Shown one piece after another: positions 55,649-57,195 of a DNA stretch of 64,000 bases. Both the position numbers and the translations under genes were made by a program. The DNA is from a virus, in IMG/VR virus record IMGVR_UViG_3300035145_003920, positions 1 to 64,000 of that record; one strand, written 5' to 3'. The notes beneath the pieces are model-generated. The model had not been told where the DNA came from and searched no databases. It was given only the letters and a program-made list of their open reading frames with translations. Position 1 is the first letter of the stretch. The number at the start of each line of letters is the position of its first letter.

Positions 55649-55861
55649 TTAACTTTCCATCCACTTAACGATAATGCCTTCTCTAAACATATCCCAGTTA
55701 TCTTTGGAAATCATTTCTTTATCTAATAATCTATTAGCTGCTAATTTACTTTGAGCTACTATTTCTGATTCTGTTAATCCAATAAATAGATCAGAATAAT
55801 ATTCAAAAAATGCTTTACCATTCCCATGAGCATCTAATATTGGGCTAATTTCAAACGCCAT
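55649..55861 (-). CDS. Hypothetical protein
   Basis: 70 aa. Confidence 0.65.
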   Translation of the reverse strand: MAFEISPILDAHGNGKAFFEYYSDLFIGLTESEIVAQSKLAANRLLDKEMISKDNWDMFREGIIVKWMES

Positions 55862-55873
55862 AATTAAATATTT

Positions 55874-55939
55874 TTAGCAATTACAGCATGTACAATCACA
55901 TGATGTTCCGCAATTACATACTTTACAATTACATTTCAT
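55874..55939 (-). CDS. Metallothionein-like micropeptide (21 aa, 9 Cys)
   Basis: Hand-translated MKCNCKVCNCGTSCDCTCCNC*; start overlaps the end of the upstream gene; fills the intergenic gap. Confidence 0.7.
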   Translation of the reverse strand: MKCNCKVCNCGTSCDCTCCNC

Positions 55940-56195
55940 TTATTCTAATTTTTAGATCAGTTGTACCTTTTAATACACGGTGAATTTCACCTTTAGTTAT
56001 AAATATTGTTTCACCTTCTTTCATTGCTCGAGGTAACATATTATCTCGTTGGATACACCATCCTTCGCCTTCAAGAATTTCTATTGTTCTATCTTCATCA
56101 TCTTGATGCCAAACCAATTCCATTGGATCAACATCTTTAGAAAATGTTCTTATATTACCCTTATCAAGATAAGGATTTATTTTGTTTTCCCCCAT
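55929..56195 (-). CDS. Cupin-like protein
   Basis: LVWHQD, EILEG, IFITKGEIHRV cupin motifs. Confidence 0.72.
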   Translation of the reverse strand: MGENKINPYLDKGNIRTFSKDVDPMELVWHQDDEDRTIEILEGEGWCIQRDNMLPRAMKEGETIFITKGEIHRVLKGTTDLKIRINEM

Positions 56196-56593
56196 GATTT
56201 ACCTTTTCCTTTATCCTTACATTTTGAAGGTGTAGGTCTACAAGATGGGTATTTTGCTCTTTTTTCTCCTTTTTTTCTACCGCAGGCTTTATATTTCATT
56301 TTACCTGTTTTAGAATCTTTTCTACCTGTATTACAATCAACCCAACCACCTTCTTTACCTGAAGGACCAGAACGTTTAAACCATTTGTGTAAAGATTCTT
56401 TTTCTTTTTCACTTAAAGTTTGAACGTGTTCTTTTACTCCTTTCCAAATGTCTCCTTTACGACATCTGACTACAGCTCCTGATTTATAAGCTGATGGTTT
56501 TTTAAATTTGCGGTCAGCAATACGAAGACATCTATCTCGTTTTTTCTTTTTTTCATTTAAAACGTTATGTATTGCTTCTCTAACTCTTTCCAT
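56177..56593 (-). CDS. Basic Cys-containing protein (putative internal virion protein)
   Basis: Lys/Arg-rich modules after VLNE and LSE sites. Confidence 0.7.
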   Translation of the reverse strand: MERVREAIHNVLNEKKKKRDRCLRIADRKFKKPSAYKSGAVVRCRKGDIWKGVKEHVQTLSEKEKESLHKWFKRSGPSGKEGGWVDCNTGRKDSKTGKMKYKACGRKKGEKRAKYPSCRPTPSKCKDKGKGKSWGKTK

Positions 56594-57195
56594 TACCAGA
56601 AGGTATTCATATTTGCTCCTAAACCTAATGCACTAGCATATCTTGGTAGTCTACAAGACCAGTAAGATGGTTTAGTTCTATCATTTTTTTCTTTACATCT
56701 ATGTCTTTTAGCAAAAGCATTTCTTGCTTTAGAATTTCGAATTTTTGCTCTTAATCCGCCTGAACCAAATGATACTTTTTTAATTCTTTTAGTTTTAGGA
56801 TCCCTTACATAAACATAATATGCTTTAGAACCACCTCTTTTAGGTTTACCTAGTGGTGGATCTTTTTTCTTTTTCTTAGCTTTTTTCTTTTCATCTAACA
56901 TAGGTAAATCTAAAGGTACACTTTCACCTTCATATACTCCAAATTCACCTAAATGGGTTTTAATTAAACCTTCATCTTCTTCACACAAATTAATTACATT
57001 TCTAGAATATAATTTTCTAGCTTCTTTAATTAAGGATAAATGTTTGTCTGAACCAATACGATATACTGTTTCAAATAAAGGAAGTTCATTATCTATATGA
57101 TATTGTAGACCTTCAGATAATAAAGATTTTACTTTACTTTCTGTTAACAAAGGTCCCGTTATTTTATTTTCACAATTACAGCTCATTATCCCCAA
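56593..57195 (-). CDS. Protein with basic C-terminal module
   Basis: After MLDE: KKKAKKKK...FAKRHRC...YWSC. Confidence 0.7.
   Translation of the reverse strand: MGIMSCNCENKITGPLLTESKVKSLLSEGLQYHIDNELPLFETVYRIGSDKHLSLIKEARKLYSRNVINLCEEDEGLIKTHLGEFGVYEGESVPLDLPMLDEKKKAKKKKKDPPLGKPKRGGSKAYYVYVRDPKTKRIKKVSFGSGGLRAKIRNSKARNAFAKRHRCKEKNDRTKPSYWSCRLPRYASALGLGANMNTFW

Follow-up and report, generated by a model that had tools for sequence, protein, structure and literature searches.

A conserved nine-cysteine micro-gene shared by phages and marine Bacteroidota, probably encoding a minimal metallothionein-type peptide

An open reading frame of only 21 codons, nine of them for Cys, raises the question of whether it is a gene at all and, if so, what so small a product could do. 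It was found in the window, the whole 64,000-nucleotide stretch of DNA that was analysed, which belongs to a 77,467-base IMG/VR virus record estimated to be 48% complete. Since a portal, a terminase, a gp23-type head protein and a tail sheath are encoded, the virus is a myovirus; the genes for the portal, the large terminase, the gp23-type major head protein, the tail sheath and a ribonucleotide reductase are all on the minus strand. The only cultured DNA relatives of the window are Baltic Flavobacterium phages of the immuto group. The reading frame and the genes around it are as follows.

55874..55939, minus strand: nine-Cys micro-gene of 21 codons (ATG at 55939-55937, TAA at 55876-55874) with the skeleton CxCxxCxCxxxCxCxCCxC
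55929..56195, minus strand: upstream gene for an 88-aa single-domain cupin, the commonest upstream neighbour in the family
55649..55861, minus strand: downstream 70-aa gene that matches no family and separates the micro-gene from the FAD-dehydrogenase gene in this genome, present in one other contig only
54037..55371, minus strand: gene for a 444-aa FAD-binding protein (Pyr_redox_2), matched in the N-terminal dinucleotide motif only

Read from 55939 to 55874 on the minus strand, the product is MKCNCKVCNCGTSCDCTCCNC. The peptide and the TAA codon reported in the initial annotation were exact, but the strand is minus, and the plus strand has a stop codon in that frame. Both Cys codons are used, as had been noted, with six TGT and three TGC. 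The described overlap with the end of a cupin-like gene was also found, the ATG sharing the last 11 nt of the upstream gene, and the stop codon lies 12 nt from the next gene, so that the micro-gene fills the gap between the two. TGY accounts for 2.3% of the window trinucleotides, from which about 3.5e-5 windows with at least nine Cys in 20 codons are expected in 64 kb, and in 100 first-order Markov simulations the maximum Cys count per window was 7. A chance origin of the ORF is therefore excluded. It occurs as a single copy in the 77-kb record.

As an unbiased set, 80 viral loci were retrieved solely through the neighbouring cupin protein, and their short ORFs with at least five Cys were listed. 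About 25 of the 80 carried an ORF of 20-22 aa on the cupin strand with all nine Cys and with differing residues between them. A scan of the same loci for this Cys spacing, relaxed to allow fewer than nine Cys, gave 9/9 Cys in 20 of them, while other windows reached at most 6/9, as chance matches that stop codons mostly break; since none had 7 or 8, the gene is either intact or absent. Among 18 distinct cupin-linked cores, T/C polymorphism was observed at seven of the nine Cys third positions and no variation at any of the 18 first and second positions (Fisher p = 4e-5), which is the synonymous, Cys-conserving variation in related phages that had been proposed as a check. The Ser11 codon alternates among cores between TCA/TCT (TCN) and AGT (AGY), a switch that needs two base changes and is therefore a mark of selection on the amino acid. 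Among the matches listed, every one of the 133 distinct copies is open in the peptide frame, which holds for no other frame; a coding role of a different frame or of the opposite strand was rejected for this reason. The micro-gene is packed tightly between genes of the same strand, with gaps of 2-12 nt in many copies. The nine-Cys ORF is a real gene whose Cys skeleton is under purifying selection, and it is left uncalled, in agreement with the original remark that it falls below gene-caller thresholds.

These data also bear on the view that the protein itself has no function, the stretch being instead a repeat or regulatory site in the DNA, a structured RNA, or a leader ORF that senses cysteine and whose product does not matter. 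The motif TGTAATTGY occurs three times within the ORF, which is very short and lies just upstream of other genes, as such an element might. Nevertheless, this view is extremely unlikely, since the variation is patterned by codon, with synonymous Cys changes and the TCN/AGY switch at Ser, while a leader ORF would not need to keep the Cys spacing and Gly-x-Ser, and the small gaps in many copies leave too little space for a terminator or attenuator. Two specific forms were tried and rejected: TGTAATTGY is not enriched as a dispersed repeat (4 sites elsewhere in the window versus about 2 expected), and the fold of the micro-gene as RNA is not unusual (z = -1.8).

The start of the gene was compared with the initiation rules of Bacteroidia.

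55940..55953, minus strand: initiation region, with A throughout positions -14 to -10 and without a Shine-Dalgarno sequence

In Flavobacterium johnsoniae, A at -13/-12/-11, -6 and -3 was measured as a positive start determinant (PMC6847099). Among the matches listed, A is present family-wide at -13/-12/-11 in 87/86/77% of the copies, at -6 in 75% and at -3 in 86%, and a Shine-Dalgarno-like core within 25 nt before the ATG was found in 6 of 95 copies. The window copy has T at -3 and G at -6, unlike the family-wide A. The start of the nine-Cys family carries the Bacteroidia initiation signature. Both codon-level selection and a lineage-typical start, which mark a coding gene of Bacteroidia or their phages, were thus observed.

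Phage members were collected in IMG/VR with a degenerate pattern of all nine Cys, a non-T first base at six variable codons and a stop codon; the matches of a looser first pattern were dominated by (TGY)n simple repeats. At least 119 stretches matched the degenerate pattern, and the IMG/VR copies amount to at least 141, with at least 102 distinct DNAs and at least 92 distinct peptides with nine Cys, so that the refuting condition named in the initial annotation, an ORF that is not conserved, clearly does not apply. Among the matches listed, nearly all peptides are 20-23 aa long, with the ATG 0-3 codons ahead of Cys1 and the stop directly past Cys9, and all members have the skeleton CxCxxCxCxxxCxCxCCxC. 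The other positions are taken by N, T, K, S, D, G and E, with Cys making up 43-45%; across the 115 distinct cores among the matches listed, F, W and Y are absent and His appears once. The CxC and CC motifs and the lack of aromatics first noted for the window copy extend in this way to the family, although the latter is partly set by the pattern. Most members were collected by requiring nine Cys and excluding codons that begin with T at six variable positions, so that only the cupin-linked set and the first scan, made without these constraints, give an unbiased view of Cys invariance and of the lack of aromatics.

Almost all non-Cys positions vary freely among polar residues, with Gly-x-Ser conserved. 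No leader, signal peptide or hydrophobic segment is present, and the peptide would therefore be cytoplasmic, with reduced thiols. In T4-like phages, the gene was found after the cupin and also close to a gp44-type clamp loader, to gp23 or to a holin; given these several neighbourhoods, its presence does not depend on one syntenic block. One variant of 36 aa with 15 Cys (L206:798-905, minus strand) has an extra N-terminal CxCxxCxCxxxCxC half before the nine-Cys core, as though the first half of the core had been duplicated internally.

When 185,579 species genomes were scanned with the pattern, 90 matches were obtained; about 60 of them were Cys-codon simple repeats in unrelated, mostly GC-rich genomes and were discarded. 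The 28 genuine cellular copies are all in marine Bacteroidota MAGs and SAGs of 27-31% GC, from Cryomorphaceae MED-G11, Flavobacteriaceae, Marinoscillum and other Cytophagales, and Marisimplicoccus. The idea of a phage-only gene had to be corrected, since the gene has a fixed chromosomal slot in one small-genome marine Flavobacteriales genus (assemblies of 0.6-1.4 Mb), where the pattern was present as a single copy in 19 of 31 sampled genomes; it was found in none of 400 other sampled genomes of the order Flavobacteriales. The slot is common to about 20 species, one such contig being 1.1 Mb long, and runs in the order AIR-synthase-related gene (388 aa), glutamine synthetase, Na/Ca exchanger, tRNA-Arg(ACG), 119-aa unknown gene, peptide, lipoprotein and convergent pirin. 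Hydrolases, PhoD and glyoxalase are further neighbours of the cellular copies, and a search for known RNA families near the cellular copies gave tRNA-Arg only.

Cellular copies lie about 0.4-0.7 kb from tRNA-Arg(ACG) even when the other flanks differ, as in L329 and L357 with glyoxalase and DUF5916 neighbours. A small cassette of the 119-aa gene and the peptide could have entered at the tRNA site.

L318:5531-5604: cellular copy by tRNA-Arg(ACG), with equivalent positions in L312, L322, L329, L336, L343 and L357

The phage and cellular peptides can be told apart. Phage copies start with MK and have Gly at core position 9 in 74 of 90 among the matches listed, whereas cellular copies start with MD and have T, N, Q or D at that position, with Gly in 0 of 25. 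Since these differences are consistent, the phage genes form a separate lineage and cannot be put down to contamination. Twenty residues do not allow the direction of phage-host transfer to be read.

The phage signature hints at a phage-specific constraint, as would be expected if the peptide were a metal-structured micro-protein that binds a protein or nucleic-acid target, such as a host factor or a defence protein, with the cluster as scaffold only, like the Zn3Cys9 of CXC or pre-SET modules. Zn3Cys9 clusters are also structural cores of binding domains, and the gene moves among several phage neighbourhoods like a moron. However, the freely varying non-Cys positions leave little conserved recognition surface, the chain is too short for much beyond the cluster, and the housekeeping-type chromosomal copy is fixed in one bacterial genus, all of which makes a target binder unlikely.

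Metallothioneins are defined by low mass, very high Cys content, Cys-x-Cys, Cys-x-y-Cys or Cys-Cys motifs and few or no aromatics. The product of the window gene has nine Cys in 21 aa (43%), and the motifs of all three kinds and the lack of aromatics hold across the members listed. By this operational definition, the predicted peptide has every sequence feature of a metallothionein, and it seems to stand outside every described family profile. No family was matched by hmmscan against Pfam-A and NCBIfam up to E = 10, including the metallothioneins (e.g. Metallothio_Pro), no PDB chain was matched by phmmer and no PHROG match was obtained. Ten exact sequences, longer ORF versions included, were absent among about 15 billion predicted proteins. 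When the peptide was compared by tblastn with 50,697 records of cultured phages, nothing was found, probably due to low-complexity masking. No paper was found that contains the characteristic motifs of the family. The initial annotation knew of no characterised phage metallothioneins; this needs amending in that "phage metallothionein" is mentioned generically as an auxiliary-gene class in metagenome surveys, but the nine-Cys family is not among them. Its metallothionein-like reading, in turn, agrees with all sequence-level features, but no metal transporter, sensor or resistance gene was found near the examined phage or cellular copies, and the 28 cellular loci examined have no MerC-type neighbour.

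The closest likeness is to the beta domain of animal metallothioneins (e.g. human MT3), where nine Cys are likewise the sole invariants, C-x-C-x-x-C-x-C is common to both and the filler is polar and free of aromatics. The beta cluster holds 3 Zn or Cd, or 4, 6 or 10 Cu(I), so that the original statement that nine Cys is the ligand count of a three-metal beta domain agrees with the Zn3Cys9/Cd3Cys9 cluster. Nevertheless, the beta domain has about 30 residues versus the 19 spanning the nine Cys of the phage peptide, it is part of a two-domain protein whereas the phage and bacterial peptide is a free-standing product of 21 aa, and the second-half spacing (CxCxCCxC) differs, with no HMM or sequence match.

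Fungal family-1 copper metallothioneins, such as those of Neurospora crassa and Agaricus bisporus, are about 25 aa long and, like the peptide, are gene-encoded single-cluster chains made mostly of CxC and small polar residues. They differ in having seven Cys, which bind about 6 Cu(I), no CC pair and another spacing, and they are eukaryotic and have no detectable sequence relationship to the peptide. The bacterial proteins BmtA/SmtA, PmtA and MymT are cytoplasmic, Cys-rich and metal-sequestering, as proposed here for the peptide, and its Lys-preceded C-x-C-x-x-C-x-C appears to resemble the N-terminal motif of SmtA. However, SmtA (56 aa) and PmtA (about 70 aa) have His ligands and a zinc-finger-like fold with hydrophobic residues, whereas the peptide has 21 aa, essentially no His and no hydrophobic core. 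Nine invariant Cys are also found in the CXC and pre-SET modules of MSL2, tesmin/TSO1 and SUV39 methyltransferases, where they hold three zinc ions in a single Zn3Cys9 cluster, six of the thiolates being terminal and three bridging. These are domains of about 50 residues with conserved non-Cys positions in large eukaryotic DNA- or chromatin-binding proteins, and nothing suggests homology.

Taken as a whole, the sequence pattern points to a translated nine-Cys micro-protein of 20-23 residues, from an undescribed family, that is probably a minimal metallothionein-type metal-thiolate peptide, because the only invariants are the nine Cys at fixed spacing and a chain ending in Cys, with polar filler. 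We infer its translation, its metal binding, the identity of the metal, the stoichiometry and the link with the cupin from the comparisons given here. The peptide would have no fold of its own and would collapse round a metal-thiolate cluster like a metallothionein domain. Nine thiolates would fit either M(II)3Cys9, where M is Zn or Cd, or a cluster that holds four to six Cu(I), but this stoichiometry is a guess, since 19 residues are shorter than any known chain enclosing M3Cys9. In the infected cell, the peptide could serve as a small, cheap, high-affinity buffer or donor of Zn or Cu, with the adjacent small cupin as its likely partner.

A bolder version of the metallothionein-type reading is put forward only tentatively, and we regard it as doubtful: the peptide would be the shortest gene-encoded metallothionein, a free-standing 19-residue Cys9 cage with which abundant T4-like phages of marine Bacteroidota capture scarce Zn or Cu for phage metalloproteins such as the mini-cupin, and the Gly form found in phages would have diverged independently of the host copy. 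Should metal binding hold, the peptide would lower the size limit known for genetically encoded metal-thiolate clusters and provide a minimal model for cluster folding. It would also mean that abundant ocean Bacteroidota phages interfere with host trace-metal handling, in waters whose available zinc and copper shape the growth of microbes. Independently of its function, the nine-Cys family, a large one carried by ocean phages of Bacteroidota and by one small-genome host lineage, is a clear case of a widespread gene family invisible to gene callers.

Since a cupin partner is part of this proposal, the upstream protein was also characterized. It matches Pfam Cupin_2 weakly (E 0.005), and its AlphaFold model (pLDDT 92) has small metal cupins as best PDB matches, namely KdgF, the Mn-cupin TM1459 and NMB1881, with TM-scores of 0.46-0.64. 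The invariant residues are W29, H30, D32, D35, R36, W46, Q49, D51, H72 and R73; with H30, D32, D35 and H72 among them, the protein keeps the His/Asp/His set typical of metal cupins. Among the matches listed, the cupin lies within three genes upstream in 43 of 112 members and directly upstream in 27. In one case the two are fused.

L202:536-997, minus strand: cupin-peptide fusion, a 154-aa ORF in frame with the internal ATG retained

Only a single 25.6-kb contig has the fusion, which may therefore stem from faulty assembly. The cupin and fusion context gives modest support to the metal reading.

Further upstream, two small Lys/Arg-rich proteins are encoded at 56177-56593 and 56593-57195 (both minus strand), with DUF5872 and phrog_7595 matches. 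Within the region, similarity at the DNA level (77%) to the cultured Flavobacterium phages of the immuto group is confined to the DUF5872 gene.

Downstream, the FAD-binding protein is the commonest neighbour, in 43 of 112 members and directly in 33 among the matches listed. Its relatives number thousands in marine assemblies, with 87-98% identity among the best 120, and they bear the JGI name "uncharacterized FAD-dependent dehydrogenase". The linkage of the micro-gene with the cupin and the FAD-dehydrogenase may reflect the shared ancestry of closely related phages. A cytidylyltransferase-like gene comes after the FAD gene, as does an AAA_28 kinase-like gene in related phages; these neighbours suggest a NadR-like NAD salvage pair.

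This flavoprotein is also a reason to consider that the Cys are not Zn or Cu ligands, and that the peptide is a thiol-rich redox or electrophile buffer, or an iron-sulfur or persulfide sulfur carrier. The N-terminus of the FAD protein is of the pyridine-nucleotide-disulfide-oxidoreductase type, and the cellular slot adjoins pirin, a redox-linked iron bicupin. However, the match to reductases is confined to the dinucleotide-binding motif, with no redox-active CxxC family recognised, and the cellular copies have no FAD-type neighbour on the same strand. In addition, the fixed Cys spacing and chain end suit a defined cluster geometry and not a bulk thiol pool. A redox or sulfur role is considered quite unlikely.

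The same flanking genes could be maturation enzymes, the peptide being a RiPP precursor modified by the cupin and/or the FAD enzyme. In favour of this are its shortness, its many Cys with one at the C-terminus, and its place beside a cupin and a flavoprotein in many phages, with a fusion to the cupin in one. A precursor is nevertheless very unlikely, since no leader or follower exists, with 0-3 residues before Cys1 and none past Cys9, the non-Cys residues are not conserved, and known maturase families are absent beside both phage and cellular copies. Besides, the cupin and the peptide occur separately: the nine-Cys pattern is absent from the whole genomes of Flavobacterium phage immuto, Methylophilales phage Melnitz and Tenacibaculum phage pT24, all of which carry the cupin, and other phages and cells have the peptide without the cupin. 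Two tiny annotated genes past the immuto cupin are hydrophobic and unrelated to the nine-Cys peptide. In summary of these alternatives, the redox, RiPP and non-protein explanations are disfavoured because of the variation at non-Cys positions, the lack of a leader and the codon-level pattern.

A second, unrelated micro-ORF family was observed in 16 IMG/VR contigs of the same phage group. Its members have 28-30 aa with six conserved Cys (C-x3-C-x7-C-x3-C-x4-CC) and the core ICKITFNKVCxGWC, with hydrophobic and aromatic residues.

L013:2430-2516, plus strand: six-Cys micro-ORF, also at L009/L011/L012:3577-3663, L029:3547-3633, L057:4563-4649 and in L404-L419

The six-Cys and nine-Cys families never occur together in the fetched stretches. 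In L013 and L412, the six-Cys ORF starts 5 nt past the cupin, in the slot that is filled by the nine-Cys gene in related phages.
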